A stretch of DNA of 64,000 nucleotides from Candidatus Bathyarchaeota archaeon (GCA_963715865.1 OY970280.1:800001-864000); one strand, 5' to 3'. Numbered from the stretch's first letter, positions 1 through 46,466 are shown. Numbers and translations are program-made. The notes: generated by a model from the letters alone, not told the origin.

Positions 1-54
1 AAACTTCTTAAGGCAATGAGTTCAGCCAAACCTGAGGTCATCAAAACCAAATGA
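1..54 (+). CDS. 3' end of an upstream gene (partial), product not identifiable
   Basis: Frame 1 is open ([17 protein letters not shown]) to TGA at 52-54, which overlaps the ATG at 51 (ATGA coupling). Confidence 0.55.
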
Positions 55-2387: not shown

Positions 2388-2426
2388 CCAAAAGCCAGTA
2401 GTTAACATTTTTTAGAGGAAGTCATA

Positions 2427-3350: not shown

Positions 3351-3370
3351 GAAGTTATGGTTAAAATTAA

Positions 3371-4534: not shown

Positions 4535-5673
4535 AAATAGCTATGCTCGTTGAAAATCCTCTTTTCTTCGGTGGCGGAGAAATTCATGCTTATGAAATAG
4601 CAAAAAATCTTTTAAAATTCGGGCATAAAGTTGATTTTATTCAACTTTACGGTTTTCCTAGAAAACGCGAATTCGGTTCATCCCAAGAATTGAGTCCGTC
4701 AAGATGGGTACCTCTCCCGAATTCTAGATTTACAAATTTCATATATGCTCGAATTTTGTGGTCTTATAGCTTTCTTACGGTTCCTTTGGTTTTAAGGGAA
4801 TTATTCAAAGGTAAATATGATATTGTGCATGTGCATGGATTTGGTTATTCCTCTCTATTGATATCGGCGGTTATAGCAAAAAGAAGTAACCATTCCAAAG
4901 TATTCTGTACACTTCATAATGATTTGCTTCATCATGTTGACCACAAAGTTATGCAGATACTTTCTCAATATGTAGATCAGTTTATTGCAGTCAGCTCTTC
5001 AATCCAGAAGAGGTGGCAGATCCTTTACAATTCAGATCCATTGTTAATTCCAAACGGTGTTGATGTTTCCCGTTTTAACCGCAAAGTTGATGGTTCTTTA
5101 ATAAGGAAACGTTTGGGAATAGAGAGCAAGTACGTTGTACTATCAATTGGGCGGTTATCCAGCCAAAAAGGCATTAAATACCTTGTTCAGGCGTCATCTT
5201 CCCTCAAAAAGGATATACCTAATCTAATCGTTCTGATCTGTGGGCGCGGTGAAGAGGAAGCTTATCTGAAAAAAATGGTCAAAGACCTTGAATTAGACGG
5301 GATAATCAAGTTTTTAGGATATATTCCGTCCGATGAGCTTCCGATGTACTATGCTGCCTGTGACGTCTTCGTTCTTCCTTCAGTTTTCGAAACATTTGCG
5401 CTTACATTACTCGAAGCTTTAAGTGTTGGAAAACCAACAGTATGCGCTAAAGTAGGCGGTGCAAAAGAAATTGCTAGCCAATTTGAAATTAACTATTATT
5501 CTAAACTTGTTAAACCTGAAGATTCTGAGGATTTGGCGAAAGGTATTTTATGGTATTTTAGTCATCCTGAATTTTCGACGATTAATCGCAAGAAAATTGT
5601 TAATCGGAAATTAAAAATCTATTCGTGGGAAAATATTTCACTAAAAATAAATGAGCTCTATGAGCAGTCGTGA
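4531..5673 (+). CDS. Glycosyltransferase family 4 (GT-B)
   Basis: GGGEIH, GRLSSQKG and ETFALTLLEALSVGKP motifs. Start moved from 4471 to the in-frame TTG at 4531, which overlaps the upstream stop (TTGA) and gives MKIAML. Confidence 0.92.
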   Translation: MKIAMLVENPLFFGGGEIHAYEIAKNLLKFGHKVDFIQLYGFPRKREFGSSQELSPSRWVPLPNSRFTNFIYARILWSYSFLTVPLVLRELFKGKYDIVHVHGFGYSSLLISAVIAKRSNHSKVFCTLHNDLLHHVDHKVMQILSQYVDQFIAVSSSIQKRWQILYNSDPLLIPNGVDVSRFNRKVDGSLIRKRLGIESKYVVLSIGRLSSQKGIKYLVQASSSLKKDIPNLIVLICGRGEEEAYLKKMVKDLELDGIIKFLGYIPSDELPMYYAACDVFVLPSVFETFALTLLEALSVGKPTVCAKVGGAKEIASQFEINYYSKLVKPEDSEDLAKGILWYFSHPEFSTINRKKIVNRKLKIYSWENISLKINELYEQS

Positions 5674-5775
5674 GCAAGCAAATAGCATTTTCTAAAACTT
5701 GGTTACCTCCGAGACTACCGTGATTAAGCAAGCAAACCTTAGCTTCAAAGTATAATTTCAAAAGCGTGATCAGCA

Positions 5776-7533
5776 ATGTCGAAAAAAACTGCGTTAAAAA
5801 GCAGAGTTAGCCTAAAGATTCTTTCGATTTCGCTGACTACAATCGGCATAATGCTACTGATATGGTATCTAAGATTTGTCGAAACTGGGCTATCAATTTG
5901 GCTACTTTATGCGGGTGTGGCAACATTAAGCATTGGGAACATGCTAGCCTTTGTCACTCTTGAAAGTAAATCAAAGAATATTCATTTCATACTTGTTCTC
6001 TTTCTGACAACCATTTTTTTAGCAAACATGTATACCGTACGTTTTGACTCACTACAGGGATCAGACATATTATATGAGTATACAACGGCTAGAACAACAC
6101 TTCAACAAGGAACATGGTCATTGGCACGCTCGCCATTCGAGAACTATTTTTCAGCAATTTCAGTTTCGCTAGTTCCCGCCCTCTTATCTCAGATAAGTGG
6201 GCTTAATCTATTTTTGATTTTTGAAGTAGTTCTTCAACTAGTGGCGGCTTTACTTCCTATAATTATTTTTATAACAGTTAAAGAAGTTTTCAAAAATACA
6301 CGTCTTGCTGGCTTGTCTTCGTTACTATTCAGTCAACTATACTTTAATTTCACTTTGCTTCCTTCATTAATGCGCCAATACGTTGCAGAAATTACGCTTG
6401 TTCTATCAATGTTTATTTTAATAAGAATGTATCAAAAGAAATCCTCAAAACTTTGGGCTTGGACGCTTCTTTTATCAATATCATTATTTGGTGTTGCCGC
6501 TTTTCACTATACAGTGGCTTATTGGGCAGTTGCTATTTTTCTTGCAATCTTTATTTTCGAATCATTACTTTCTTTCTTCCCTAAAAAACTCTTGAAAATT
6601 TTCAAATTTTCTACAGTGATTAAACAGCGACAGATATTTCGTGCTGAATATCTGTTGTTATTTTTTGTTTTCCTTGCTTTTTGGACAATAACAACAAATC
6701 TTGTACCTTTTTTGACCGACGTTCATAATCAAATTTATTTACTATCTGGAGGCACACCTGCCGCTTCGGGGCAATACCAAGTTGGATGGTTATCAGGTAG
6801 CACAGTAGGATTAACTACTACTGCTTGGTTTATTTGGGAGGCCGGATTGGGTGTCTTAGGTTTCATCTATTTTATGTTTAAAGTTCCTAAACAAACAAGG
6901 CATGTCCCCTGGATAATAGCTGCCTTAGTTATGTTTGCTGCGGTAGCAATCTGGATTAGTCCTTCCTTTTCTGGCGGTTTAATTTATCTGGACAGAGTTT
7001 ATTTAATTGGTTCTATCTTTTTTACTGCATTTGCAGCAGGTTTACTTCTGAAAATAAATTCTAAATTGAAGGTAGTAGTCATTATATTTCTTCTTATAAA
7101 TCTACCAGTTAATATGCTTATAATTCCCAACCAAAGATACGTTTTGTACCACAAAGAAAGCGATGTCGCTCCTGCGGATGAAATGTTAGCGAATATTGTC
7201 CGTCAACCTTCCATGGTTTTGGCGAACTGGTTAAATCTTCATCCATCTACAAACGCATCAGATACTATTTACACAGATAGTGTTACTGGTCCCCGATCAC
7301 TATACTCCTTGAACTACAACTACACAATTGTCCCACTTTCATTTATACCCACAGATCTTAATGAAACAGGTCTTTTTTTCTTTCATTATCTTAACCTAGA
7401 GTATGGATTATGGCAAACTAGCGAACGGACTAACGCAAATATTGATGTGCAAAACACTTTGAATGATACAACGATTGTTTATAATAACGGCCAAGCAATG
7501 TTAGCGTATATACAACAACCGGAGAATCCCTAA
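5776..7533 (+). CDS. Multipass membrane protein, DUF2206-like (possible GT-C fold transferase/polymerase)
   Basis: Many hydrophobic segments, an early loop GSDILYEY, an FHYT motif, and a C-terminal soluble domain ending IVYNNG; lies next to DUF1616-like genes. Confidence 0.6.
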   Translation: MSKKTALKSRVSLKILSISLTTIGIMLLIWYLRFVETGLSIWLLYAGVATLSIGNMLAFVTLESKSKNIHFILVLFLTTIFLANMYTVRFDSLQGSDILYEYTTARTTLQQGTWSLARSPFENYFSAISVSLVPALLSQISGLNLFLIFEVVLQLVAALLPIIIFITVKEVFKNTRLAGLSSLLFSQLYFNFTLLPSLMRQYVAEITLVLSMFILIRMYQKKSSKLWAWTLLLSISLFGVAAFHYTVAYWAVAIFLAIFIFESLLSFFPKKLLKIFKFSTVIKQRQIFRAEYLLLFFVFLAFWTITTNLVPFLTDVHNQIYLLSGGTPAASGQYQVGWLSGSTVGLTTTAWFIWEAGLGVLGFIYFMFKVPKQTRHVPWIIAALVMFAAVAIWISPSFSGGLIYLDRVYLIGSIFFTAFAAGLLLKINSKLKVVVIIFLLINLPVNMLIIPNQRYVLYHKESDVAPADEMLANIVRQPSMVLANWLNLHPSTNASDTIYTDSVTGPRSLYSLNYNYTIVPLSFIPTDLNETGLFFFHYLNLEYGLWQTSERTNANIDVQNTLNDTTIVYNNGQAMLAYIQQPENP

Positions 7534-7534
7534 G

Positions 7535-7765
7535 ATGGCGTTTGACATATTAACGCTATTAACGTCGCCATTGATGTATACACTGGCTTTTCTTTCGTTC
7601 ACAGCTGTTCTTTTCTTTCTGTTGGGAAAGTTTCATCAATCTTTCTTTAGAGGCTTCTCTCTGCTTGATAGAGAAAAACTTGTTCTTGTGAGCAACATTT
7701 TTTCTGTTGCCAGTATAATATTATCAATTTATATTATCTATATGCAATACATGCTTTTGTTTTAG
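7535..7765 (+). CDS. Small two-TM membrane protein, hypothetical
   Basis: Two hydrophobic helices; starts 1 nt after the previous stop. Confidence 0.65.
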   Translation: MAFDILTLLTSPLMYTLAFLSFTAVLFFLLGKFHQSFFRGFSLLDREKLVLVSNIFSVASIILSIYIIYMQYMLLF

Positions 7766-7788
7766 TAAAAAACCAATGGTGAAAAAAA

Positions 7789-8166
7789 TTGTATAAACGA
7801 TTTTGGCTTATCTTAGCTGTAACTATACTCACTGATGTTACAGTCTTGAAAATAAGCGAATTTTCTGTTTTTATACCTTTACGTTGGGTTATTAGCCTTA
7901 TTTTTTCTTTAGTTCTTCCTGGTTATTGCTTGCTTGAAGCCTTGTTTTCCCCTAATGAAATCGACTTAGTGGTTAAGGCTTGTTTAAGTGTTATTTTGAG
8001 TTTCTGTCTTCTTGCGTTAGTTGGATTGCTTATAAACTATCTATTCGGCAATATTACTCTTTTAAACTTGATGATTTTCATCTCTTTTGAAATAATAATT
8101 TTAGCTACAATCGGTGGCCTCAAGCATTCACGATTTCAAGCCACTAGAAACATCATAGTCGATTAA
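7789..8166 (+). CDS. DUF1616-like N-terminal membrane domain protein
   Basis: IFSLVLPGYCLLEALF...LSVILSF...VGLLINY resembles the DUF1616 TM region; TTG start. Confidence 0.65.
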   Translation: MYKRFWLILAVTILTDVTVLKISEFSVFIPLRWVISLIFSLVLPGYCLLEALFSPNEIDLVVKACLSVILSFCLLALVGLLINYLFGNITLLNLMIFISFEIIILATIGGLKHSRFQATRNIIVD

Positions 8167-8501
8167 GGCACTGTTAACCTGAAAGAAGAATATAATAACC
8201 GATGGGTCAAAATGAATATGATGGCATATTTAGCAAGGGTCTATTTCGCTATAGGTGGTTCATAAACTGCTTTAAGCCGCTTGCTCAAGATTCATTAACT
8301 CATGACTTCAATGCAAGAGGGGTCGTCGGGAATGTTGCGAGTTCTAGTTTGACTGGTGTCTGGAGTGCTAATGCGTTGAGTAAAGTTAAGTGCGGGATGA
8401 TATCCATAAAAGTTAAAGGAACCCTTTTATGCGGGGAATGTGAGAAATACAATTTTCAAAATTAACTTCGAAAATTCAGGATTAAGGCTGTTGAGACTTG
8501 T

Positions 8502-9227
8502 ATGGTAAACCTAAAACGTTTTAAATTGAACAGCGATAAACAAGTATTAATAGCTGGAATAGTTTGCTCTGTTGTCTTATTATCTTTTGTAGTGTATGTT
8601 TTTACGTTACCGGCACCAACTCAGCCCATTTTTCCCATGTGGGTTGTTGAACAAAACGGTGCGATTCCAAGTTCAGAGATGAACATAACCTTAGGGAATC
8701 AATCTGGACTTTTAATTGGCGTTCAAAATCAAATGGGGAAGCTTCAGTACTGTTCGATTGTGGTAAAATTTAGGAATTTATCTTCCCCCCCGCCGGTCTC
8801 TGCCAATGCAACTGTTCAAAGCAAAGCAAGCCCTCTCCATCCTATAATGAGTTTTAGCTTAGTGCTCACCAATAATGAAACATGGGTAACACCGTTTAAC
8901 TTTAAGTTCCTCTGGGAAGGCAACATTGACAACAGCTACACTATCAATTCAGTGGTGATAAATGACCAAAGTTATAATTTAACCGAGCCCATACAAAACG
9001 GAAACTTGCAAAATTCTTCATACCAATTTTTGTTTGAACTCTGGACGAAGAATACACCAGAAGAGAACTATAATTTTTCGGGAATATGGGTATCTTCTCC
9101 ATTCTTAATATTTAATCAAAATATAAGCCTAACTTCTACTTCGACTCCAGAACCAACGCCAACTTCGATGATTAATGTTGATTTTTCTGCTACTGACTCT
9201 GTTTCATCAATCAAAGATGTACTATAA
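8502..9227 (+). CDS. DUF1616-like C-terminal extracellular domain with N-terminal TM anchor
   Basis: Single N-terminal TM, IGVQNQMG...Y...VKF and YQFLFELW segments, many N-x-S/T sequons. Confidence 0.6.
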   Translation: MVNLKRFKLNSDKQVLIAGIVCSVVLLSFVVYVFTLPAPTQPIFPMWVVEQNGAIPSSEMNITLGNQSGLLIGVQNQMGKLQYCSIVVKFRNLSSPPPVSANATVQSKASPLHPIMSFSLVLTNNETWVTPFNFKFLWEGNIDNSYTINSVVINDQSYNLTEPIQNGNLQNSSYQFLFELWTKNTPEENYNFSGIWVSSPFLIFNQNISLTSTSTPEPTPTSMINVDFSATDSVSSIKDVL

Positions 9228-9385
9228 AGTCTACAACCATAATACAAACAGTTAGGTTTTCTCCACTAACGTAATGTTGCAAAGGCACCCTACGATGACG
9301 ATAAACCGTTCTTGGTATTATACTTTCTATGTATGGGTGTCCGTCAGACTCACAGAAGTTCATTGGGATCAAAATATAAGTAACA

Positions 9386-10135
9386 TTGGCACATAAGAAG
9401 CAAAAATATGGTGTTGACCCTATGAAATTGAACTCAATAGTAAGGTACTCAATAGTTATGATTACTGCTGAGGTTGGCATACTTCTTTTCGTGTTGTCTT
9501 TCTATTATTTTCCATCGAATATTCTTATGATTTTGACAGGCTTAACCCTTATAATTTCGGCTGTTTCCTTTGCTTATACAACTTCTACTAGGATGGTACA
9601 AGCAAGAGTTATAACATCACAAATAAGTAGTTTAACTTTGACTCTTAATCGCCTACTTAAGGAGGCAGGATACGAAGGAAAAACTTGTTTCTTGCCCCCT
9701 CAATTACCGGGGGAACCGCCTGTTCAGTTAATAGGTAGTAAACCTATTATTCCCACTGGTCTTCATCTTGAATCAATTTTTGAGAAAGAAACTGGGGTTG
9801 ATTTTTTTTCAATCGACCTTAAGCAATTAGAAGAGCTTTTAGTGAAAGTGATTGTCGATAAGCTCGAAATTGCTAGCGGATTCGGAATTTTAGATAAAGA
9901 CGGAGTCATATACATTCGGATGAAGGGTTTTGCATTGTATGAATTTTACAATTACTTGCAGGAGACGACTTCTCAAGATTACTTATCGCTGAGTCCTACT
10001 GTTAGTGCCTTAGCATGCGCTATTGCTAAAGCTACCAAAAAAGCCGTTTGGATTGACCAAGTTTTTCTTAGAAAACAAAATCTTGAAATTAAATTTAGGT
10101 ATGGTTCCACAGATGTAGGGGTAAAGATTCCTTGA
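9386..10135 (+). CDS. Hypothetical membrane protein (two N-terminal TMs plus soluble domain)
   Basis: Long ORF with coherent topology; the start may be the ATG of MKLNS. Confidence 0.65.
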   Translation: MAHKKQKYGVDPMKLNSIVRYSIVMITAEVGILLFVLSFYYFPSNILMILTGLTLIISAVSFAYTTSTRMVQARVITSQISSLTLTLNRLLKEAGYEGKTCFLPPQLPGEPPVQLIGSKPIIPTGLHLESIFEKETGVDFFSIDLKQLEELLVKVIVDKLEIASGFGILDKDGVIYIRMKGFALYEFYNYLQETTSQDYLSLSPTVSALACAIAKATKKAVWIDQVFLRKQNLEIKFRYGSTDVGVKIP

Positions 10136-10177
10136 CTTTCTCAATAAAGCGTTATTAGATATGAAAACAAAAAAAGG

Positions 10178-10930
10178 ATGTGGCTGGTAACTTTTATGGG
10201 CAAGCTTTTCTCTTCAGGACCACAGCCTTGGTCAGAAACTCCGTGGCTGGAAAGAAGTAAATTCTTTGATTATCTTTTTATGCGCTTTCTTGAATTTAAC
10301 GATGCTAAAGTAAATGGTGTCTGTGTTGACATAGGTTGTGGAGACGATAGGTCTATTGGCAACGCTTTGTTTCTTTTAAAGTATTTCTCGGAAGTAGTCT
10401 GTACTGATTTAAACAAGCAAGGACTAAAAAATCATCAAGAAAAATCTAAAAAGCTAAGAAAGCAAACTGCATATGTGGTTGCAGATGCGCAGCATTTACC
10501 TTTTAAAAATGAATCAGTCGATGGAGTCTCTGCTTTTTCATTAATTGAGCATTTGCCTAAGCAGATTGAATTTATTGGTGAAGTGAGGCGTATACTTGTG
10601 GATGATTCATTGTTCATACTGCAATTTCCTAACAGACAATTTCCACTTGAAGTCCATACTGGTGTACCTTTTCCAAGCATTATTCCGATAAAAGTACAAA
10701 AGCGGTGGGGTCAGTTTATGTATGGATGGATTGATTTCGAGCTGAATAGCCTTACGAAGAAGGCAGCCATAAAATTATGCGAGATGTCGTTTAAGTCGAT
10801 CTCCATTCAAAATGTCAATTTTACCGAAAATCTGATTCCAATTAAATTTAGAGTAATTAAAAAGGTTTTGGAAAAATCAGGTTTTCTTAAATTTGTTCCA
10901 ATGGGTTACTTTTTCATTTGCACTACCTGA
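10178..10930 (+). CDS. Class I SAM-dependent methyltransferase
   Basis: Motif I VDIGCG, VADAQHLPFKNESVD, LIEHL, EVRRIL. Confidence 0.9.
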   Translation: MWLVTFMGKLFSSGPQPWSETPWLERSKFFDYLFMRFLEFNDAKVNGVCVDIGCGDDRSIGNALFLLKYFSEVVCTDLNKQGLKNHQEKSKKLRKQTAYVVADAQHLPFKNESVDGVSAFSLIEHLPKQIEFIGEVRRILVDDSLFILQFPNRQFPLEVHTGVPFPSIIPIKVQKRWGQFMYGWIDFELNSLTKKAAIKLCEMSFKSISIQNVNFTENLIPIKFRVIKKVLEKSGFLKFVPMGYFFICTT

Positions 10931-10984: not shown

Positions 10985-12412
10985 TCAAGAAGAAAGCGGA
11001 TCAGTTCCAGAATCGCTTACTCCAACATTTCCATGCAGGTAAACTTGCGTGCAATGACCTAAGCTTACTTTTGTCCCACTTATTCCGGTGAAATTGCTGT
11101 AAAGTATGCGAACGTAATGTGAGTTCTGCACATAGTCCGTGACACCGTTTGCACCAGATAAAGTCACGTTTAGAATGTTAACGTTCAATGCTGACACGAG
11201 GCATATAGCGCCATTATAGTCAGTTGGAGAGTTAATTGAACCTCCAGAAATAGTGACGTTGTTTGCTCCAATCCATATGGCGTTTGAACTCAGAATGGTG
11301 TTATTTATGAATTGAACGTTAAAAGTCTGAGAATTTGTGTAAGTTGCTAAAGGAAGGTTGCAGTTAGATACTGTGTTGTTGGTGACGATGTTGTTGTTTG
11401 AATTTAAAATGTGTATTCCTGCACTTTCACCTATATTGTTCTGCCCGTTCACTATGTTGTTAGCAATCAGGGTATTATTCCTAGTTGAAGCTAAATCATC
11501 TTCGCATGCTGAAACGTTATTGTTTAAAATATTGATGTTTTGACTCCATTCTGCCGCGATTCCCCAGTGGCTTGCTCCAGAATATTGAGTAACGTTTGAA
11601 ACGGTGTTTCCTTTGATAGTTACATTATTAACATACCAAGAGTTTATACCAACATCTTGACCCCCATTTACAACACAACTTTCTACGGTAGTATTACTGT
11701 AAAAGCTTGCGTCATTGCCTTCAATCGTAATTGGATTATCGCCAGCGTTTATCACCGTACAATTGTAGACATATCCATTACTTACTTGGCGTAAGTCAAT
11801 GCCTTGGCCTATTACATTTTGTAAAACAAGATTTTTGACGATAATATTACTGTAAACTGCACCATAAAATGATATGCCAAAGTACTGACTAAAGTAACTA
11901 CCCCATGTGCTTGTTCCACGGTGATCTACTAATGTACCTTTATTTCCATTCCAGTTACCTCCGTCGACAACAAAGTTTTGCACGTTTGATTTCGTAACAA
12001 GAAGTGAAATACTTGCTCCAAGACTTGATGGGGTGTTTTGGTAAATTGTTGCTGAGGATGAAACTTGAAGGTATACGCCAGTTTGTGCGATTAAGGGGGT
12101 ATTTAATCGGAACGACCCATTTCCTATTTTTACTGTTCCGCCTCCGTTTTGGCTCGCGGTTTGCATGGCATCATTGATTAGTTTTGAGGCATAATTGGGG
12201 TCGGTAGCGTATGTTTGCTGATTTCCTTGATTGACAGCGTAATATGTGCCGTTGCTGTATTGACCGATATAATAGGTGTTCACTGAGTAAGAGTATGATA
12301 TCTGACCTGTGCTACTTATTGAAATGCTTACATTCAGTGCTGAAAGTGCCAAAGGAGATAATAAAAGGACTAACAGCACTGCTAGAATGGCTAAAGCCAC
12401 ATTTTGTCTCAT
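10985..12412 (-). CDS. Secreted right-handed parallel beta-helix (pectin lyase-like) protein
   Basis: Signal peptide, INDAMQTA...GGGTVKIGNGSF glycoside hydrolase-like N-cap, and repeated N/V/I-rich beta-helix turns (NVTIKGNTVSN, NINILNNNVS). Confidence 0.85.
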   Translation of the reverse strand: MRQNVALAILAVLLVLLLSPLALSALNVSISISSTGQISYSYSVNTYYIGQYSNGTYYAVNQGNQQTYATDPNYASKLINDAMQTASQNGGGTVKIGNGSFRLNTPLIAQTGVYLQVSSSATIYQNTPSSLGASISLLVTKSNVQNFVVDGGNWNGNKGTLVDHRGTSTWGSYFSQYFGISFYGAVYSNIIVKNLVLQNVIGQGIDLRQVSNGYVYNCTVINAGDNPITIEGNDASFYSNTTVESCVVNGGQDVGINSWYVNNVTIKGNTVSNVTQYSGASHWGIAAEWSQNINILNNNVSACEDDLASTRNNTLIANNIVNGQNNIGESAGIHILNSNNNIVTNNTVSNCNLPLATYTNSQTFNVQFINNTILSSNAIWIGANNVTISGGSINSPTDYNGAICLVSALNVNILNVTLSGANGVTDYVQNSHYVRILYSNFTGISGTKVSLGHCTQVYLHGNVGVSDSGTDPLSS

Positions 12413-12590
12413 TTAAAGTCGGTATCTTACAGTTTCAGATATAATTAAATCTTTGTGCGGATGTGTTTAACAGATAAACAGTTTAAATAGTCTGTGACAT
12501 TTTTTAAATTTGAAAATAAATCAAACAAACTAAATAATTTGAAATAAGGGTAAATCCAGTTAGATCTTTCTTGGTTTTTGATATGTTACG

Positions 12591-12826
12591 GGTCACACTT
12601 CCGCGGTTGGAAGCTTTCAGTTGTTTCTAGGGAAGATGCTTTCAACCATGTATGTTCATAGGCATATTTTGGACCTAGAAAAAATACGAAACCGTAATAG
12701 ACTTTAAATCTTCAGCAAAAATACTTCTAGCTTCGTCGATTGCAGCCATGATCACGTACCTCTTCTTGTATTTTCTCAACATGGCTTATTGGATTCAGCT
12801 TGTAACTGGTTTAGTCCTTTTTTGCG
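12591..12826 (+). pseudogene. Internally deleted oligosaccharide flippase (Wzx/MATE-like) remnant
   Basis: GHTSAVGSFQLFLGKMLST (12591-, flippase-like N-terminus) is followed in another frame by GIFWT*KKYETVIDFKSSAKILLASSIAAMITYLFL (12661-, flippase-like C-terminus with an in-frame TAG). Family recognised from memory, not by search. Confidence 0.6.
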
Positions 12827-12827
12827 G

Positions 12828-12914
12828 AGCTGGAAAAAGCCTAGTGCCTAATCCAGCAGCTGGAATGATAACTTTACGAATCGCCAATACCCTGTTTACC
12901 TCTTCCCTTCTCAT
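12828..12914 (-). pseudogene. galU: N-terminal fragment of UTP-glucose-1-phosphate uridylyltransferase (GalU-like)
   Basis: Minus strand reads MRREEVNRVLAIRKVIIPAAGLGTRLFPA, containing the nucleotidyltransferase PAAGLGTR motif. Similarity ends there and a stop follows about 10 codons later. Confidence 0.8.
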
Positions 12915-13471
12915 TTCTCACCCGTCCGTTAAATACAATATGAATAAAAAATATGAATTGCTAAATAGTTGCTAGAATAACTTGAAATCAGGACACCCTC
13001 GTCAGGGCATTGTAGATACGATGATTATGAACGAAAATGGAATTCGCAGGAACTTGCCCGTCTATTATAGTCGATAATGTTCAATTAACCCTTTCGGGAC
13101 TGCTTTCCACGCTTCGGAAACTACGCGGGTTGTAAGTAGTATTTTGCCTGATTTCTGCAGATGAAAAAATAGACGTAAATATCATCAAATATATTTACTA
13201 CCAAAACATAAGTAAGAATTCCCATATATTCGTTTGAGGAGTAATTTAGGAGAAGAAGAGCACGGTATGAGGAGAAATCAGCTAGCAGTAGCGAATATGC
13301 TCTGCTTTTCAGCAAAGGTTGACATATCCCAGTTTTTGAACTATTCAAGCTCTGAAAACGTCGCTTACACCATGATACCCGACTCTCCAACTACAACCAG
13401 ACATAATAACCCCTACCTCTATGCCAAGAGCCCAAATCTAAGTCAACAAAAACCATCAGGATGAAAGAAAC

Positions 13472-16400
13472 ATGAAAAAACTACAAATCCTAATAATCGC
13501 ATTTCTAATTTCGTTATCAATATGCGCATTCGCGAGTATGCAAGCCAAAGCTGTGGGACAGTACCAGGTGACGTTCTCCAGTTCTGTTCTTGGTGCTGAT
13601 GCTACTGGAAACTTGGTGAGTTTCAGCGTTAGTGGCGGCTCATATTCTGGTGCTACTAGTCCGATTGACGTTCCTGGCGGTTCCATCTTGGTTGATGACG
13701 GTGCGACCGTTATCTACAGCTTCGTTAATCCTGTAGCGAGCACATTTACTGGCGAGCAGTATCGGCTTGACAGTGTTACTGGTTCTACTTCTCCAATTAC
13801 TGTTACTGGCGACACCACGGTTACTGGCAATTATGTGGCTCAGTATTTGTTGACTGACTCTTTGGATTCTGGTGCGGTTAATTCTATTACTGCTTCTCCG
13901 ACTGGTGATTCTTGGTATGACAGCGGGACGACGGTTATTGTGGTTTTGAATAATGTTTGGGATGCTTCTTCCTCTACACGGACCAACTTGTTCAGCTACA
14001 CTGTTGATTCTACTCCTACGCCGGTGACTAGAAGCAATACTGGTACGGTTACTGTTCCTGATATCGTCATGAGTGCTGCTCACAGTATCAGTGATGCTTC
14101 TAAGACTCAGTATTTGTTGACGGTTACTGGTGGAAACGGCATAACTTATGGGACTGCTTCGCCTACTGGTGACCAATGGTATGACTCGGGCACAAGCACA
14201 ACAGTCTCTTCGAATTGGGTTTGGGGTACTTCTGGCTCAATGCGTACTACGTTGACAAACTGGAACCTTGATGGTGGTTCTAACCAGAACCCGGCTAGGG
14301 CTAATTCTGGAACCCTAACAACTAGCTCTGTTGCTATGTCCGCAGCTCACACGGTCAACTTCATTTCAACTATGCAGTACTATCTGACGGTTACTGGTGG
14401 AAACAGCATAACTTATGGCGCTGCGTCGCCGACATCGGACAACTGGTATGATTCTGGTACTTTTACGACGGTTAGTTCCAACGGAATTTATAACCGAGCA
14501 AGCGGAACTGGAACTCGCGTTTCATCATGGAACATTGACAGCGGCTCAAACACTAATGTAGCAACAACTGGAATCGTTTCGACATCTTCCGTCTCGATGT
14601 CAACATATCACACTGTAAACTTCAACACGGTTACTCAATATCAAGTGACGCTGGATACTGGTGCAACCAGTGCGCTTTCATCTATTACTTCACCAACAAT
14701 AAGTGGAGATAATTATTGGTATGACAGTGGCACTACAGTTACAATTGCTCTCAATGGTGTCTATGGAAGAGGTAGCGGCGCAGGAACAAGAATCACAGGA
14801 TATGAACTTAATAGCGGTTCAAACAATCCTGAATCTACAACGGGTACGTTTAACGCTTTTAGTGGTGCTATTTCAAATCACGAATATGTTACGACGGCAA
14901 CTGTAACTCAATACCAAGTAACTTTAGATTCAGGTGCTACATTAGCTCTAAACTCTATCACGACCCCAACAATAAGTGGCGACAACTATTGGTACGACTC
15001 AGGCACATCAGTTACTTTGGTTCTTAACGGAGTCTATGGCAGGTCTGGAGGCTCAGGAACGAGAATCAGCGGATACAAAATTAACGCTGGCTCCAATAAC
15101 CCTGAATCCACAACCGGCGCTTTCGTCGTCCTTAATGCATTAAGCATCAGTTCAGCCCAGTCGATAACAACCACAACCGTGACACAGTTCTTTTTGACGG
15201 TGACTGGTGGCAACGGAATCACTTATGGGGCTGCACCCACAATTTCAGGCGATACAGGTTGGTATGACTCTGGAACTTCCACGACCGTTTCGTCCAATTG
15301 GGTCTGGAACATAGTAGCTGGTCAAAGTCGAACTGCACTTACAAATTATGCTATTGATTCTACGAATCAAAATCCTACACGATCAAACACAGGAACTTTA
15401 ACGACCTCTTCTATTTCTATGACTACATTTCACACAGTTGCGTTCGCTTTGACAACACAATATTATCTCTCTGTCAGTGGGGGAAACGGTGTTTCTTATG
15501 GAACCGCTTCACCTACCAACGATAATTGGTACGATTCAGGCAGTTCTACTACTGTTTCGTCTAACTGGGAGTGGAATGTGGTTTCTGGTCAGTCCAGAAC
15601 AGCGATAAACAATTATGCGATAGATGGCTCGAACCAGAATCCTGCGAGGCAAGGCTCTGGTACATTAACTACTTCTTCAATCATCATGTCCACTTACCAT
15701 ACCGTCGTTTTTGCATCCACAACTCAGTACTATCTGATGGACGCGACGATTTCTGGTTCTGAATACTCGATCACGGCTTCTCAGACGAATGATGGCTGGT
15801 ATGACAGTGGAACTAACGTTTACGTGGTGTTGAACAATGTTTGGGGTGTCTTGGATGGGAGCAGAAGCAACCTTGTTAGTTACACGGTTGACACTACGAC
15901 TACGATGGTTTCTAGGAGTGGCAGTGGGACCGTTTCGGTGCCGGCCATAATGATGAGTGCCGCTCATTCAGTTAGCGATGCAGCTCAGACTCAATACCAG
16001 TTGACGCTTTCTTACTCTGTAAGCGACGGCGGTTCTGGTTATTCTGCCCCCTCGTTTACGGCTAATCAGTTTGGTTCTCTGTACGGTCAGACTTTGACGA
16101 CTTCTGCTGCAGGTTACTGGTTTGACGCTGGCTCTTCGTGGACTGAGACAAATCCGTTGGGAGGTTCAGGAGGAACTGAGCGTTGGCAGACTAACCAGGC
16201 AGTTTCTGGCTCCGTTAGTTCCGCTCAAACCCTTGCTTTCGTTTATTATCATCAGTATCAGGTGACTTTTGCTGTTAGTCCTTCTGGAAGTGGATCAACA
16301 TCTCCTGCTGGTGCCAATGTTTGGGAGGCTGCTAGTTCTCTTGGCATATCTGCCACAGCAAACAGTTTTTATGTGTTCTCAAATTGGACAAGCAGCACTG

Positions 16401-17626
16401 GGTCAATTACATTTAGCAACGCAACCTCTGCATCTACGACCGCGACCATAAGTGGATCTGGAGTAATTACAGGTAACTTTTCACCTGTTTCGGATCACTT
16501 TTTCTTTAACCAAATTGGTTCTCAGATTGCGGGCACGTCGTTTACTGTAACGATTACGGATGAGGATTCTTCAGGGGGAACCATTACAAGCTATAGTGGC
16601 ACGCCGACTTTCACGTATTCTGCTGGATCTGTTACTCCGTCTTCTGCGACTGGCGGCTTCTCGAATGGAGTTTGGACCGGTTCAGTTACGGTGACTGTTG
16701 CTGGTTCAGGCGTTACTATTACAGCTACTGATGGTAGTCATACTGGGACGAGTAACTCGTTTACGGTAAATCATGCTGTTGCAGTCGCTAACGTTGTGAT
16801 TTCTCCTGCTGGTTCATCAGTTACAGCTGGGGCATCTAAGACTTATTCGGCTACGGCTTCTGACGCTTACGGTAACACATGGGATGTGACTTCTTCAACG
16901 ACTTGGAGCATAAGCTCTAGCGCGGGCGGTTCATGGAGCAGTAACGTTTACACTTCTGCGACTGCTGGTGCCTGGACAGTTACGGGCACTTATGCTTCTA
17001 CGGCTTACACTGCTGGTTTGACGGTGAATCCGGCTGGTCTGGATCATTTTGTCTTTAATGCTGTTGCGGCTCAGACTGCTGGTTCAGCTTTCAGCATAAC
17101 GGTTACTGCTGTTGATGCGTATGGCAACACGGTTACAGGCTATACTGGTACGCCGTCTTTGACGGTTTCTGCTGGGTCGATTAGTCCTGGCACTATGAAT
17201 GCTTTCGTTAACGGTGTAGGCTCGACTACGGTCACGGTGACTACTGCGGGTTCAAGCGTTACTATCACGGCTACTGATGGTGGTCATTCTGTGACGAGTA
17301 ACTCGTTTACAGTGACGGCTGCACCAACTCCTACTCCAACAGCAACGCCATCACCCTCACCAACTGCCACTCCGACCCCTACACCAACTCCAACACCTAT
17401 ACCTACAGCTACTCCTACTCCCACGATACCGTTACCTACTCAAACTCCATCAGCAACACTGCCGCCAGCACCATCATTAGGACTTGTGATTATCGTCGTC
17501 ACAACCGTCGCCGAAATCATTGTAATATTCACAGTAATAGCCATCAAACGTTCAAGACGAAAACCTGGCAACGCCCGTTTTTACACAGACAAGCTGACAA
17601 TTATTATATTCCAATCCTTGCAATAA
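13472..17626 (+). CDS. Large Ser/Thr/Gly-rich cell-surface protein (adhesin-like) with tandem beta-repeats, Ig-like domains, PT linker and C-terminal TM anchor
   Basis: Signal peptide; eight roughly 90-aa repeats with WYDSG plus one WFDAG; two Ig-like DHF.F repeats; a (PT)n linker; hydrophobic anchor followed by KRSRRK. Confidence 0.9.
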   Translation: MKKLQILIIAFLISLSICAFASMQAKAVGQYQVTFSSSVLGADATGNLVSFSVSGGSYSGATSPIDVPGGSILVDDGATVIYSFVNPVASTFTGEQYRLDSVTGSTSPITVTGDTTVTGNYVAQYLLTDSLDSGAVNSITASPTGDSWYDSGTTVIVVLNNVWDASSSTRTNLFSYTVDSTPTPVTRSNTGTVTVPDIVMSAAHSISDASKTQYLLTVTGGNGITYGTASPTGDQWYDSGTSTTVSSNWVWGTSGSMRTTLTNWNLDGGSNQNPARANSGTLTTSSVAMSAAHTVNFISTMQYYLTVTGGNSITYGAASPTSDNWYDSGTFTTVSSNGIYNRASGTGTRVSSWNIDSGSNTNVATTGIVSTSSVSMSTYHTVNFNTVTQYQVTLDTGATSALSSITSPTISGDNYWYDSGTTVTIALNGVYGRGSGAGTRITGYELNSGSNNPESTTGTFNAFSGAISNHEYVTTATVTQYQVTLDSGATLALNSITTPTISGDNYWYDSGTSVTLVLNGVYGRSGGSGTRISGYKINAGSNNPESTTGAFVVLNALSISSAQSITTTTVTQFFLTVTGGNGITYGAAPTISGDTGWYDSGTSTTVSSNWVWNIVAGQSRTALTNYAIDSTNQNPTRSNTGTLTTSSISMTTFHTVAFALTTQYYLSVSGGNGVSYGTASPTNDNWYDSGSSTTVSSNWEWNVVSGQSRTAINNYAIDGSNQNPARQGSGTLTTSSIIMSTYHTVVFASTTQYYLMDATISGSEYSITASQTNDGWYDSGTNVYVVLNNVWGVLDGSRSNLVSYTVDTTTTMVSRSGSGTVSVPAIMMSAAHSVSDAAQTQYQLTLSYSVSDGGSGYSAPSFTANQFGSLYGQTLTTSAAGYWFDAGSSWTETNPLGGSGGTERWQTNQAVSGSVSSAQTLAFVYYHQYQVTFAVSPSGSGSTSPAGANVWEAASSLGISATANSFYVFSNWTSSTGSITFSNATSASTTATISGSGVITGNFSPVSDHFFFNQIGSQIAGTSFTVTITDEDSSGGTITSYSGTPTFTYSAGSVTPSSATGGFSNGVWTGSVTVTVAGSGVTITATDGSHTGTSNSFTVNHAVAVANVVISPAGSSVTAGASKTYSATASDAYGNTWDVTSSTTWSISSSAGGSWSSNVYTSATAGAWTVTGTYASTAYTAGLTVNPAGLDHFVFNAVAAQTAGSAFSITVTAVDAYGNTVTGYTGTPSLTVSAGSISPGTMNAFVNGVGSTTVTVTTAGSSVTITATDGGHSVTSNSFTVTAAPTPTPTATPSPSPTATPTPTPTPTPIPTATPTPTIPLPTQTPSATLPPAPSLGLVIIVVTTVAEIIVIFTVIAIKRSRRKPGNARFYTDKLTIIIFQSLQ
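13844..15994 (+). repeat. Eight tandem roughly 270-bp coding repeats (WYDSG units)
   Basis: Recurrent cagta(t/c)...tggta(t/c)ga(c/t)(tc/ag)...gg units in the DNA and in the translation. Confidence 0.9.
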
Positions 17627-17643
17627 GACGCAGAGGGAATTGT

Positions 17644-18051
17644 ATGATCGTTAGAAGTAATATTAATCCTTTCGCTAAAATTTGATATCCTGACCTCGTC
17701 AACATATACGATAGTTATGTAGGTGAAGGCACCAAAATAGCAAGCTTCGTCGAGATAGGCAACGCCAGAATTGGAAGGAATTGCAAGATCGAGGCTTTCT
17801 CTTTCTTGCCTCCTGGGACAGTGATTGAGGATAACGTTTTCATCGGTCCTCATGTAATAATAACAAACGACCGCTACCCAGATGCAAAAAGCAAAACTTG
17901 GAAAAAAGAGCCCGTCACAGTTAAAAAAGGCGCAAGTATAGGCGCAGGCAGTATTTTAATTGCTGGTGTTACTGTAGGTGTTACTGTAGGCGAAAACGCT
18001 ATAGTTGGTGCAGGCAGCATCGTGCCGCGTGATGTACCCGACGCCACTTAG
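17644..18051 (+). pseudogene. Hexapeptide-repeat N-acetyltransferase (WbpD-like), interrupted
   Basis: ATG 17644 reads MIVRSNINPFAKI*YPDLVNIYDSYVGEGTKIASFVEIG, in frame with the 17806 ORF (FIGPHVIITNDRYP, GASIGAGS). TGA at 17683-17685 sits where Trp is typical; there is a 12-bp duplication and a short C-terminus. Confidence 0.8.
17965..17988 (+). repeat. 12-bp tandem duplication (ggtgttactgta x2)
   Basis: Directly visible; produces GVTVGVTV. Confidence 0.9.
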
Positions 18052-18088
18052 ATTCTTAGCGGGAATACAGGCAATTTTTCCAAACTTC

Positions 18089-18409
18089 TTACATTAGGCG
18101 GAAATTCACTGTCTTCGAGATTCGGCGTTTATTCAGCCAACCCATCCGTGAAAGTTGATTTAAATAGTTGCTTTCAATTGCTCGGCATCGCCCCGTAAGA
18201 TTTGATACGTCCACCGCGTTGCATTCGCCTTTAGAAGCCACAATAACGTAGGTCCTCCTTAAGTGATCAGGCAAAGTGATTAGTGAGGATTCAGGTACGC
18301 CTACGGGCTGTTGCCTCCAACCTGAGAAGCTGTTTTCAATATCGTCGAGGCGGTGACGTATACTCATCATCTCTTTGAATATGCTTTCAAGAACCGATCT
18401 CCGAACCAT
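18089..18409 (-). CDS. Winged helix-turn-helix transcriptional regulator with N-terminal coiled coil
   Basis: LPDHLRRTY...NAVDVSNLTGRCRAIESNYLNQLSRMGWL is an archaeal wHTH pattern. Confidence 0.8.
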   Translation of the reverse strand: MVRRSVLESIFKEMMSIRHRLDDIENSFSGWRQQPVGVPESSLITLPDHLRRTYVIVASKGECNAVDVSNLTGRCRAIESNYLNQLSRMGWLNKRRISKTVNFRLM

Positions 18410-18768
18410 TTTTTCCCCTCATTTTTCCCTTCATTTCATATCAACCAACCAAGCGAAAGTACACAGAAAAAATGATTTAACATTTTTTGAGAACACAACT
18501 TAAGCGATTTGTCAACCAAACTTGGAAAGATGCGAAGCCAACTTCGCAGGATTGCAAAGACAAACTCGCAAGAACGTTTTGACATGCAAAAAAATCTAAA
18601 TTCAACAAAACAGTGCGTTCCTTCTTCCTGTTACTGATGATCCAAAGATGCTTCCTTTTTAGATTAAAGAACACCGAACCGGTCGGTTGTGTAAATACCT
18701 CTTTTCACGTAGCCAATACAAACTTTTTTCCTATTCGTGCAAAAAAAAGATAAGGTTAGAATTTTGGC

Positions 18769-19269
18769 TTAGCCTGTTCCATATATTAATATCTGGACGC
18801 TGAAAGATGTGATTCCAGTTATGCTAGAAGACACTGACAGCGTAATTGCCGCCGCAGTGGATTGCCCAGGTGCCAGCAAGGCGCCTTCTTTGTCCCAAGT
18901 TATTGTTAATGGTCCATTCGCGTTTGTTGGGTTCCAGTTGCTTGTCGCCATACTAAGCGTCAACGAAACTCCGCCTCCCGTATTTTTGACGTAAACTGTT
19001 CTGGTTATTGTTCCCCCTGGCGATACTGAACCCCAGTCTATAGTTGTCATAGGAACGGTGCAAGCACTATCAGAGTACACGCTTAAGCTCGATGAGAGAG
19101 CGTTTGAAGTGGCGGATATGCCCGATGAGGTGCCCGATGAGGTGACGATTGACCCTGATGAATTTATGCTTGTCCTTACGCTAATTGCGCCGAAAGCAGT
19201 TAAGGTCAAAGCTAATTCGACTAAAACTATCGCTATTATTGTTACCCTTGAGAATTTTCTCTGTGCCAT
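18769..19269 (-). CDS. Secreted small beta-sandwich protein, TasA/CalY-like (paralog 1)
   Basis: Signal peptide, then VYSDSAC...IDWGSVSPGG...TVYVKNTG...SSSITGITSFS; clear paralog of 19848..20315. Confidence 0.7.
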   Translation of the reverse strand: MAQRKFSRVTIIAIVLVELALTLTAFGAISVRTSINSSGSIVTSSGTSSGISATSNALSSSLSVYSDSACTVPMTTIDWGSVSPGGTITRTVYVKNTGGGVSLTLSMATSNWNPTNANGPLTITWDKEGALLAPGQSTAAAITLSVSSSITGITSFSVQILIYGTG

Positions 19270-19847
19270 ATTATATCCTCATATGGCAAAGGTGCATTGT
19301 GAGTCTAAGAATTTCATTGTATAAGAGAACAACAAAAATACACATGCCACTTCTTCAAATCTCCCGCACAAGGTTTCAATTCTGGCGTTGCCTATCTCGA
19401 CGAAGCTCGCTATTTTCGTGCCTTCCCCAAAGTGCTAATATGCTCTATGGCGTTAACCTGAAGACAAAAAGAAGTTTCCACTGTAAGCATTAAGCGCAAA
19501 CTTCTTCAAGGCTCTAAGCATTCACAGGATGCTCAACAGTTATAACTTTGCCAAGCGTGACTTTGACTATACTATTGTAGAATTGCTAAACAACCTCTTT
19601 TCAGGCTCAAGGCTTCTTTTGCTGGCTCGATTGTCTGGACAATTGCTTTAGCGTTTGTTTGGACAAAAGAATTTAGTAAAGTTAAGAAATACGCGAACGT
19701 TCGAATAGTAACTACTCTGTTGTCTGCCGCTCTTATCGAAAATGGAACCTGAATCATTCTCGTTTGTCTTCCGGGTTCTGAGACGAAGCATCAAACCTTG
19801 GAATTACGTTTAGATAAAACAAAAAAGGAAAGAACGTGGCGGCGCTT

Positions 19848-20315
19848 TTAGCCTGTTCCTGATATCGTGATTGTGTTGCTGAAGCTCGTAATGCCAGTTA
19901 TGCTAGAAGACACGGTCAACGTTATCGTGGCAGCTACTGACTGTCCAGCTGAGAGTTGCGTCCCTTGCTGATTCCAACTTATGGTTATGTAGGTGCTTGC
20001 TCCTGAAGGGCTCCAGCTGCTTGCGGTCAAGCTTAGAGTCATCGTGCCGGTGCCTGTGTTCTTAACATAGACGGCTTGAGTGGCGGTGCCTCCGGCTGCT
20101 ACGGATCCCCAGTTTATCGAAGTTATGTTGGTAGCGCAGTTGCTGTCGGAGTACACTCCTATGTTTGGGGACGTTGTGATTGTTCCAGAGGAGGAGACGT
20201 TCTGACTGACGTTTATTGCTGCTAATGTTAAGGCTGCCAGCGCGAACGCGGCTACTGTTAAGACGACTACCACTAATTTTGAGGTTTTAGCCATTGCCAT
20301 GAGGTATTTCACCAT
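19848..20315 (-). CDS. Secreted small beta-sandwich protein, TasA/CalY-like (paralog 2)
   Basis: Signal peptide, then VYSDSNC...INWGSVAAGG...AVYVKNTG...SSSITGITSFS. Likely start is ATG 20300, after a GGTGA SD-like motif. Confidence 0.7.
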   Translation of the reverse strand: MVKYLMAMAKTSKLVVVVLTVAAFALAALTLAAINVSQNVSSSGTITTSPNIGVYSDSNCATNITSINWGSVAAGGTATQAVYVKNTGTGTMTLSLTASSWSPSGASTYITISWNQQGTQLSAGQSVAATITLTVSSSITGITSFSNTITISGTG

Positions 20316-21160: not shown

Positions 21161-22081
21161 ATGAAAAAGGTCCTAGTTACAGGCGGAGCAGGCTTCATCG
21201 GCTCGAATCTAGTTCCGCGCCTCATAGAAAAAGGGCACTCTGTAATTGTACTTGACAATTTGTCGTCTGGGAAACTGGAGAACCTGAGTAGCGTCCGAAA
21301 TAACCCTAATTTTTGCTTTATACAAGGCGACATCCGTGATAAAACAGCGGTGCATGAGGCATTTTGCAGGGTTGATGCAGTTGTGCATTTAGCTGCTTTG
21401 ATCGATGTTTCAGCCTCAGTAATTGATCCTTCAAAGACCCATGAGGTTAACGTTACAGGCACTTTAAATATGCTTCAAGCAGCAGAAAACAAAGTTGATC
21501 GGTTTGTTTTCGCTTCTTCTACAGCCGTGTATGGGAATACTGAAGCCTTGCCCATTAAAGAGACTGAAGTTCTTAGGCCAATTTCTCCTTATGCAGCGTC
21601 AAAAGTTGCAGGCGAAAGCTATTGCAGCGCTTTTACAGGCTGCTACGGCTTAGACGCGGTTGCTTTGAGGTTTTTTAACGTGTATGGACCTAGAAACGAG
21701 AATAGTCCTTACAGCGGGGTTATTACAAAATTTCTCAGAAAAGCTTGCAACAATGAGGTTTTAACTATTGAAGGGGATGGAGAACAAACCAGAGACTTTA
21801 TTCATGTGAGCGATGTTGCTGAGGCGTTAGTGTTAGCTCTAGAGCGTAAACAGTTGCAGGGTGAGGTTTTTAATATCTGTACGGGTGTGCCTACGAGTGT
21901 AAATCAGCTTGTTAATGTTTTAAGGAGTGTTACAGGCAAAAATCTATGCGTAAAACATGACTCGCCTAGGCAAGGCGATATTCGAGAAAGCTTTGGGGAT
22001 CCCGCTAAAGCAATGGATAAACTTGGTTTTAAGTCTAAAATAAGCTTGAAGAAAGGATTAGAGATGTTGCTCAAAACGTAA
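21161..22081 (+). CDS. NAD-dependent epimerase/dehydratase (UDP-glucose 4-epimerase-like extended SDR)
   Basis: TGGAGFIGS, HLAA, ASSTAVYG, YAASK (YxxxK) and RFFNVYGPR motifs. Confidence 0.95.
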   Translation: MKKVLVTGGAGFIGSNLVPRLIEKGHSVIVLDNLSSGKLENLSSVRNNPNFCFIQGDIRDKTAVHEAFCRVDAVVHLAALIDVSASVIDPSKTHEVNVTGTLNMLQAAENKVDRFVFASSTAVYGNTEALPIKETEVLRPISPYAASKVAGESYCSAFTGCYGLDAVALRFFNVYGPRNENSPYSGVITKFLRKACNNEVLTIEGDGEQTRDFIHVSDVAEALVLALERKQLQGEVFNICTGVPTSVNQLVNVLRSVTGKNLCVKHDSPRQGDIRESFGDPAKAMDKLGFKSKISLKKGLEMLLKT

Positions 22082-41440: not shown

Positions 41441-41441
41441 G

Positions 41442-42910: not shown

Positions 42911-42926
42911 AGGATTGCTCCTCCTT

Positions 42927-44432: not shown

Positions 44433-44435
44433 TTG

Positions 44436-46465: not shown

Positions 46466-46466
46466 T

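Follow-up and report, generated by a model that had tools for sequence, protein, structure and literature searches.

Can a short segment at the mature N-terminus of several exported proteins act as a donor strand, that is, as a beta-strand that completes the fold of the next subunit in a fibre? This question is raised by a 64,000-nucleotide stretch of DNA (GCA_963715865.1 OY970280.1:800001-864000; the whole stretch is referred to as the window) from Candidatus Bathyarchaeota archaeon, a peat archaeon of the Bathyarchaeia whose genome is available as a 2.35-Mb single contig that is 97.9% complete. The original prediction, made from the sequence of the window, held that two small proteins, here designated A and B, may be subunits of such a fibre, and that a third protein, C, carries the same strand in front of a beta-helix and may be displayed as a cargo. 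This paper describes the distribution of the strand motif, the modelled structures of its carriers, and their genomic context. The reading that we prefer, with a probability of about 50%, is that A and B form a chaperone-free, donor-strand polymer of immunoglobulin-like (Ig) domains, of which the free groove would take up strand-tagged glycan enzymes. The three open reading frames (ORFs) and their parts are located in the window as follows.

19848-20315, minus strand: ORF of subunit A, 155 amino acids, AINVSQNVSSSGTI
20220-20315, minus strand: predicted signal peptide of A, residues 1-32
20169-20219, minus strand: putative donor strand of A, AINVSQNVSSSGTITTS, residues 33-49, followed by the Ig core (residues 50-155)
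18769-19269, minus strand: ORF of subunit B, 166 amino acids, AISVRTSINSSGSI
19138-19188, minus strand: putative donor strand of B, AISVRTSINSSGSIVT, preceded by a predicted signal peptide (residues 1-27)
10985-12412, minus strand: ORF of protein C, a strand-tagged beta-helix, 475 amino acids, ALNVSISISSTGQI
12281-12340, minus strand: strand of C, ALNVSISISSTGQISYSYSV, preceded by a predicted signal peptide (residues 1-24)

As had been claimed, all three ORFs are present and carry the motif A-[IL]-x-V-x3-[IV]-x-S-[ST]-G-x-I directly after the signal peptide. Their N-termini are built of a basic n-region, a hydrophobic stretch and a small-x-small site (TLA/A, AFG/A, and ALS/A in A, B, and C, with the slash at the presumed cut), followed by the motif. 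Among all six-frame ORFs of at least 50 amino acids in the genome, the strict consensus is matched three times, by A, B, and C, against 0.007 matches predicted from amino-acid composition. When an 18-position hidden Markov model (HMM) of the strand was trained on homologues from other organisms, excluding the proteins of the genome itself, the five best-scoring ORFs of the genome were a paralogue at 1,666 kb, A, a 278-residue protein at 663 kb, C, and B, and these were separated from the noise by a clear gap. An independent profile search of the genome (E <= 0.1) retrieved the same five proteins and, as a further carrier, the paralogue at 1,698 kb; weak full-profile matches to other ORFs of this genome were discarded, as they reflected signal-peptide similarity only. 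The six carriers are four small Ig proteins, the beta-helix protein C, and a polysaccharide lyase of family PF14099, and the strand is conserved in these three unrelated protein families. The motif is not a generic linker behind signal peptides, an outcome that would have spoken against the original prediction, given that it has only these six carriers in the genome and is absent from the neighbouring 1384-residue exported protein. Over the 16 motif codons, DNA identity from carrier to carrier amounts to 19-27 of 48 nucleotides (40-56%); because this identity is low, the motif is taken to be kept at the protein level, and recent gene conversion or recombination as the source of the common motif is excluded. 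A and B are paralogues (51% identity in a three-way alignment, and 57% between B and mature A in the family alignment, with B matching the family HMM at E 3e-52), so that agreement of their motifs is expected, and the informative point is the presence of the motif in C.

Insertion of the N-terminal strand into the sheet of a neighbouring subunit was borne out, as a prediction, in a homotrimer model of mature A. The model scored 0.46, against 0.01 for the best of three controls, and passed the mark set by the tool. Among proteins of solved structure, 20 of 30 homo-pairs and 1 of 23 single chains reach this mark, counts that apply only roughly to a job that, unlike the calibration, used three copies and a custom alignment. 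The contacts agreed between runs by at least 97%, and the predicted local distance difference test (pLDDT) score of the partner was at least 82. The predicted interface, numbered along mature A, involves donor residues 1-17 only, which contact residues 18-22, 32-42, 50, 60, 66, 80, 101, 103, 107, and 110-123 of the acceptor. The pairs with the lowest error (5-121, 8-118/119, 11-115, and 14-110) imply that the donor strand and the C-terminal strand of the acceptor have opposite directions, and on its other side the donor strand is flanked by acceptor strand 34-41, the strand topology being read from the contact list and the DSSP strings. Within the modelled groove, V8 contacts I35, V50, and I119, I14 contacts V103, and G12 rests on the stretch 36-40 with its nearly invariant W37-G38. 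Since the donating copy's own groove is left uncontacted, the arrangement in the model is head-to-tail and open-ended. The invariant residues are not enriched in the predicted interface (4 of 11, with 3.3 expected).

The nature of the acceptor domain differs from what had been supposed. The AlphaFold2 (AF2) model of mature A, obtained with 110 homologues, has a pLDDT of 92 and a predicted template-modelling score of 0.83; in it, a seven-stranded sandwich comes after an N-terminal strand (residues 7-16). When residues 18-123 were compared exhaustively with known structures, they grouped with Ig domains of the ASH, MSP, and PapD types (Z 7-8.8), including the MSP domain of VAP (Z 8.2), the ASH domain of CEP192 (Z 8.0), and PapD-type chaperones (Z 7.0-7.5). 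The best generic Ig domain reaches Z 8.8, as compared to Z 5.7 for AbpA (7ueg; root-mean-square deviation 3.9 over 101 aligned residues, rank 47) and Z 5.8 for Tafi (9p0a); in the model, the domain is a 105-residue ASH/PapD-like Ig sandwich and not a jelly roll of the size of TasA or AbpA. At the sequence level, A and B have only sub-threshold matches in Pfam and NCBIfam, to Ig domains of the ASH/HYDIN/Cep192 type (PF22544, PF15780, PF22073) and to 'choice-of-anchor D' domains, and the family profile finds only ASH domains among solved structures, marginally, with hits to FAP81 and Hydin. On the modelled fold, A and B are members of the ASH/PapD-like (MSP-type) Ig superfamily, with a seven-stranded s-type sandwich that contains the pattern WG..PG...N.G; this membership holds at the level of the fold only, because all sequence scores are below the curated cut-offs. 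The label 'TasA-like' had to be abandoned: PF12389 matches neither A nor B (E <= 1) nor the six-frame translation of the genome (E <= 1), TasA is absent among the structural matches listed, and the nearest sequence match on the TasA side is a 38-residue alignment to BsaA (TIGR04090, E 0.12) over the generic Ig motif. The WG..PG...VYVKNTG stretch on which that label was based is real, but it is a generic signature of ASH/CARDB-type Ig domains and no mark of TasA.

A search of 1.84 billion cluster representatives showed that this unnamed Ig family is very large, with 2,327 clusters (50% identity) at E <= 1e-3 and 1,262 at E <= 1e-10, nearly all of about 150 amino acids, and with the named ones originating from Bathyarchaeia. 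Of 201 genomes sampled from the class, 48 encode members of it, as do 19 of 27 genomes of the organism's own taxonomic family, at 1-6 copies per genome. The strand is found in 103 of 148 Ig-family representatives, and the small-x-small cleavage-like site is conserved across the Ig family. In the ESM Atlas, clusters of this Ig fold are labelled 50% viral, and one cluster contains the Ig core without the strand within S_layer_C proteins, where it could serve as an acceptor-only anchor.

The carriers without an Ig domain are the second line of evidence. Protein C is the pectin-lyase-like, right-handed beta-helix that had been anticipated (PF13229, E 1.7e-12; AF2 pLDDT 93.5), with alginate epimerase AlgE6 (1.1e-8), GH28 (1.9e-8), and the HK620 tailspike (1.5e-7) among its Foldseek matches; its fold is like that of alginate C5-epimerases, GH28 hydrolases, and phage depolymerases. 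In agreement with the original prediction, it has the strand and no acceptor domain, and its strand is not confidently packed on the helix in the AF2 model: pLDDT is 58-59 for mature residues 1-20, and means for the other ten-residue blocks are 82-98, except for the last few residues. The full N-terminus with the strand is found in approximately 13-15 of 31 homologues of C, down to 42-60% identity (for example ALTTIIVISSTGQIS), and in homologue P0297 the strand is followed by a Pro/Thr linker. The motif search for other cargo that had been proposed yielded a second type, the PF14099 polysaccharide lyase encoded at 663 kb (278 amino acids, E 5e-12), and 6 of its 7 homologues, down to 53% identity, retain an I-x3-G-x-I strand after the signal peptide. 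At contact positions 5, 8, 9, 10, 11, 12, and 14 of the strand, A has S, V, S, S, S, G, and I, C has S, I, S, S, T, G, and I, and the lyase has S, I, S, S, S, G, and I. With the query used, the lyase was not found in 60 genomes from other genera of the family; a short HMM of the strand, applied to 40 relatives, detected Ig-family members only, apart from one false positive (a GGTINN repeat protein, L016), and revealed no new cargo type in the loci around the homologues.

The common segment behaves as a separable N-terminal strand module, since it is found in front of linkers, in duplicate, and in proteins that lack the Ig domain. Family members carry poly-Pro, poly-Gly, Ser/Thr, or Pro/Thr linkers, or a duplicated S-S-G-x-I strand, before the Ig core (for example P0148, P0149, P0191, P0129, L021, and protein B), and in B the donor strand and the Ig core are separated by a Ser/Thr-rich linker of about 24 amino acids that contains a second SSGIS. 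Moreover, the metagenomic relative P0268 consists of the strand and the Ig domain (38% identity to A, E 7e-29) fused to a PF14099 lyase domain, which provides independent evidence of the Rosetta-stone type that the Ig module and the lyase family work together. The strand and Ig module also occurs in other natural fusions, with type I dockerins (P0145, P0154, P0265) and with a Golvesin_C domain (P0225).

The donor-strand and cargo ideas are backed by one passing model and by consistent comparative evidence, from which we infer signal cleavage, filament formation, enzyme docking, and retention in the following manner. After Sec export, the general signal peptidase I would remove the signal peptide at the bond that precedes A-[IL]-x-V, and the first 16-17 residues of the mature protein would form a beta-strand. 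This strand would slot between strand A' of the next subunit, which bears the invariant WG motif, and its C-terminal strand, antiparallel to the latter, with V/I8, G12, and I14 directed to the hydrophobic core and G12 placed on the conserved Trp; this insertion in trans is a model prediction. Head-to-tail repetition would give a chain with one empty groove at one end, into which strand-bearing proteins that lack an Ig domain, such as C and the PF14099 lyase, could plug. Plugging in would hold the exopolysaccharide-modifying enzymes on the fibre or the cell surface, as opposed to their loss to the medium.

The genomic setting connects the strand-bearing enzymes to surface glycans. Positions 1-22,081 of the window constitute a surface-glycan cluster that includes C, B, and A, in which the other genes are arranged as follows.

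51-10930, plus strand: glycan/exopolysaccharide biosynthesis genes adjoining C (DegT aminotransferase, one family 2 glycosyltransferase (GT2), two family 4 glycosyltransferases (GT4), a 585-residue protein without a family match, a DUF1616-like protein, a membrane protein, and a methyltransferase)
13472-17626, plus strand: exported repeat protein of 1384 amino acids, between C and B, no Pfam match at E <= 1
17806-18051, plus strand: hexapeptide-repeat transferase ORF, 81 amino acids
18089-18409, minus strand: small winged-helix (TrmB-like) protein, downstream of B, weak match to PF01978
20645-20980, plus strand: DUF5658 small polytopic membrane protein, 111 amino acids, divergent from A (PF18902, E 4.8e-8)
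21161-22081, plus strand: NAD-dependent sugar epimerase/dehydratase (PF01370, E 8e-71), end of the glycan cluster

In three other assemblies, genes for homologues of C are found in the same type of cluster (flippase, GT2, GT4, DUF1616, and methyltransferase). The lyase is encoded in another glycan cluster with the same composition (G000:C1:657000-666200, L001), which has three GT4, a NAD-epimerase, a 568-residue protein without a family match, the lyase, an FkbM methyltransferase, and DUF1616. On the basis of their folds and of this glycan-cluster setting, C and the lyase are likely to be exopolysaccharide-processing enzymes. The 1384-residue protein is composed of about ten repeats of approximately 100 residues (of the type Y-x-L-T-V...W-Y-D-S-G-T), after which come a Pro/Thr linker and, at the C-terminus, a membrane anchor with a basic tail. 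It is a possible adhesin or envelope protein belonging to the glycan cluster, and the 81-residue hexapeptide ORF is probably the remnant of a truncated acetyltransferase gene at the edge of the cluster. DUF5658 and the winged-helix protein are conserved neighbours of A orthologues in the genus: winged-helix orthologues with 79-80% identity are encoded beside subunit and DUF5658 genes in loci L034, L035, and L006, a 59% identical copy of DUF5658 adjoins the A orthologue in L034, and in L006, L010, L011, L015, and L017 no more than 1.5 kb separates DUF5658 from a subunit gene. DUF5658, of which the genome has three copies and of which no mention was found in the literature, may be an anchor or an assembly factor. 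A SipW-like signal peptidase, which the analogy with TasA had suggested, was not encountered as a dedicated enzyme; the single archaeal signal peptidase I is encoded at genome position 1,613,854, approximately 790 kb from the locus, and AbpA likewise lacks a dedicated signal peptidase (PMC9245690).

Several observations weigh against donor-strand assembly. The AF2 monomer of A complements itself, with a pLDDT of 88 for residues 11-20 and a hinge of three residues only, and the strand may be the normal cis strand of a complete eight-stranded domain; folding of the strand into its own monomeric domain, which the original prediction had named as contrary to its proposal, was to this extent found, alongside the exchange in the trimer. 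Because the monomer packs the strand in cis over such a short hinge, the trimer may reflect a domain-swap preference of the predictor, or else its recall of solved chaperone-usher pili. The self-complementation of the monomer is nonetheless indecisive, since AlphaFold models of AbpA, a pilin with a proven donor strand, do likewise (PMC9245690). Furthermore, signal cleavage is predicted from the -3/-1 rule alone, the hydrophobic regions of A, B, and C span 20-22 residues, a length that would suffice for an uncleaved membrane anchor, the motif is missing from about half of the homologues of C (a subgroup), and a linear polymer would offer one free groove per chain and, with that, a low capacity for enzyme display. 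When the cis packing is generalized, the strand would be the first strand of a complete Ig domain in A and B and a short N-terminal cap or spacer in the enzymes, and the common pattern would reflect a signal-peptide and early mature region suited to Sec export, to cleavage by the signal peptidase, or to N-glycosylation (NVS/NSS sequons), and no contact between proteins. This explanation, the main rival, which is rather unlikely in our judgement, accounts for the good confidence of the self-complemented monomer, for the conservation of the c-region and cleavage site (T-x-x-A/A) along with the strand, and for the N-x-S sequons within the motif of A, B, and C, next to which stand the 1666-kb and 1698-kb paralogues that have no Asn there and retain the rest of the motif. 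It leaves unexplained why three unrelated folds keep the pattern as far as 14-16 residues beyond the cut, why the strand is modelled with low confidence on the beta-helix, why flexible linkers and duplicated strands occur, why P0268 exists as a fusion protein, and why only 6 of the exported proteins of the genome have the motif; moreover, the sequon is missing from many carriers.

The length of the hydrophobic segments of A, B, and C also allows an explanation in which the N-terminal segment stays uncleaved and the contact between strand and groove creates short chains or pairs on the membrane, holding the enzymes there, possibly together with DUF5658. Several homologues are named FlaF/FlaG-like by JGI, FlaF/FlaG being a family of membrane-anchored beta-sandwich proteins, and the conserved neighbourhood of a small polytopic membrane protein would fit such an adaptor as well. 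The lyase, however, has a hydrophobic core of about 14 residues and behind it a polar c-region, which is the layout of a cleaved signal peptide, C contains a Pro that would break a helix as well as an A-L-S/A site, and the small-x-small site is conserved across the family, which makes a membrane adaptor improbable; as its trans-strand part is identical, it is a variant of the best explanation and not its opposite. A further reading would treat the carriers as type IV pilin-like proteins with a class III signal peptide that is processed by a prepilin peptidase, a hydrophobic helix that forms the pilus core, and enzymes that are pilin-tagged in the manner of the Sulfolobus sugar-binding proteins. 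One A24 prepilin peptidase is encoded in the genome, and a type IV pilus locus is present in the window at 40.6-49.8 kb.

40679-49754, minus strand: complete archaeal type IV pilus locus
42927-44432, minus strand: T2SSF platform protein
44436-46025, minus strand: T2SSE ATPase
47539-48174, 48356-49003, and 49059-49754, minus strand: Pilin_N pilins (PF07790, E 2.5e-5 to 1e-3)

A similar type IV pilus locus is located approximately 8 kb from the A orthologue in L034. The three true pilins of the window match Pilin_N, whereas A, B, and C have no match to it at E <= 1, and on this comparison the type IV pilin reading was rejected. It is, in addition, made highly improbable by the hydrophobic regions, which are unconserved between carriers although the segment that follows them is conserved, and by the core of about 14 residues in the lyase, which is too short for a pilin helix.

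The proposed donor-strand Ig polymer is mechanistically closest to the chaperone-usher pilins and to the chaperone-free filaments of archaea. With chaperone-usher pilins (FimA, CfaB, CsuA/B), it has in common a small Ig-like subunit with an N-terminal extension that contains alternating hydrophobic residues and a conserved Gly, and the modelled position of the strand, which has A' on one side and, in antiparallel orientation, the C-terminal strand on the other, both from the following subunit; a conserved donor-strand glycine and this strand geometry are known from the Fim and Pap chaperone-usher pili. Unlike these pilins, A and B match no Pfam fimbrial family at E <= 1, and neither a PapD-type chaperone (PF00345) nor an usher (PF00577) was matched in the 97.9% complete genome (E <= 0.01). 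Self-complemented FimA pilins are the best Foldseek matches of A (E 1e-4), but the TM-score is only 0.42-0.53, and the closest structures by Z are domains of the ASH, MSP, and PapD-chaperone type, not pilins. Moreover, archaea have no outer membrane.

Chaperone- and usher-free assembly by an N-terminal donor strand has been described for the archaeal threads (Saci_0406), bundling pili (AbpA), Tafi (TafE), and cannulae (CanA) (PMC9245690, PMC9715654, PMC12337348, 10.1101/2024.12.30.630787). As proposed, the Ig system would resemble these filaments, in which a Sec or Tat signal and the general signal peptidase are used without chaperone or usher; monomers modelled with AlphaFold complement themselves there too, and AbpA has an N-glycosylation sequon on its donor strand, as A, B, and C have sequons within the motif. 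It differs from them by a core of 105 residues, in comparison to jelly rolls of 175 residues or two-domain subunits, by its weak structural similarity (Z 5.8 for Tafi and 5.7 for AbpA), and by its occurrence in a different lineage, the Bathyarchaeia; the Ig fibre is so far a prediction from genes and models. Accessory proteins that have the strand only, and that were proposed to be nucleators or caps, include TapA for TasA (PMC10151520), the thread cap Saci_0405 (PMC9715654), and AbpB (PMC9245690). C and the lyase are similar to these in having a putative donor strand without an acceptor site, and dissimilar in that they are glycan-active enzyme folds encoded in exopolysaccharide clusters, of which at least two kinds are present per genome, one (the lyase) far from the subunit genes. 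The use of a short modular tag on unrelated carbohydrate-active enzymes that dock to a surface scaffold is also reminiscent of the cohesin-dockerin system of cellulosomes, and type I dockerins are carried by the Ig-family relatives P0145, P0154, and P0265 and occur in an ESM Atlas cluster; the tag proposed here is, however, a single beta-strand that completes the scaffold's own fold, in contrast to the calcium-binding helical module of dockerins, which binds a finished cohesin. No paper linking donor strands with Bathyarchaea was found in the literature.

Two of the six Ig-family members of the genome are encoded in structural modules of tailed proviruses (G000:C1:587193-587660 and G000:C1:1698487-1698948), with the following local positions.

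L043:5191-5655, minus strand: Ig-family member in a tailed provirus
L003:6485-6895, minus strand: Ig-family member in a tailed provirus

They lie near a major head protein (phrog_1650) and tail-tube-like or minor tail proteins (phrog_290, PF18906), and a weak BppU_N-like match in this neighbourhood (E 0.006) is under the Pfam cut-off. Both copies retain the signal-like N-terminus and the strand, and could possibly cap or mimic the host fibre. A wider and more tentative proposal, which we consider unlikely as a whole, is that Bathyarchaeia employ the 16-residue strand generally as a tag for docking: an Ig fibre assembled without chaperone or usher would be combined with dockerin-like recruitment of enzymes and with the uptake of tagged subunits by tailed proviruses, perhaps to cap or exploit the fibre. 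With respect to expression, no RNA dataset was listed for the 1.7-kb stretch. Contigs resembling gene A (156-237 nt, 90-95% identity, covering window positions 19838-20281) occur in four metatranscriptome runs from two studies (soil 2015 and sediment 2025); these runs were found via gene A, and their contigs, which stem from relatives and do not extend over B or the flanks, can neither rank nor prove expression.

In peat and sediments, the uncultured Bathyarchaeia are abundant polymer degraders, and to our knowledge almost nothing is known about their cell surface. New in comparison with the known fibre systems are the putative subunit, a minimal Ig domain of the ASH/PapD-like type whose family is very large and unnamed, and the strand-only proteins, which are putative enzymes with at least two unrelated folds. 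The genes of these enzymes belong to glycan clusters, and one of the two is remote from the subunit genes. That two likely sugar-polymer-modifying enzymes bear the strand points to a mode of enzyme attachment on an archaeal surface fibre that has so far not been described. The proposal is directly testable, as two recombinant proteins and one peptide suffice. If it is true, a family of more than 2,000 unnamed clusters would become a family of fibre subunits, and donor-strand assembly would extend to a minimal archaeal Ig domain that employs the strand geometry of chaperone-usher pili without that machinery. The pair of strand and groove would then also be a compact, self-assembling tag for protein engineering. 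Finally, it would provide a cell without an outer membrane with a simple means to keep its secreted glycan enzymes attached.

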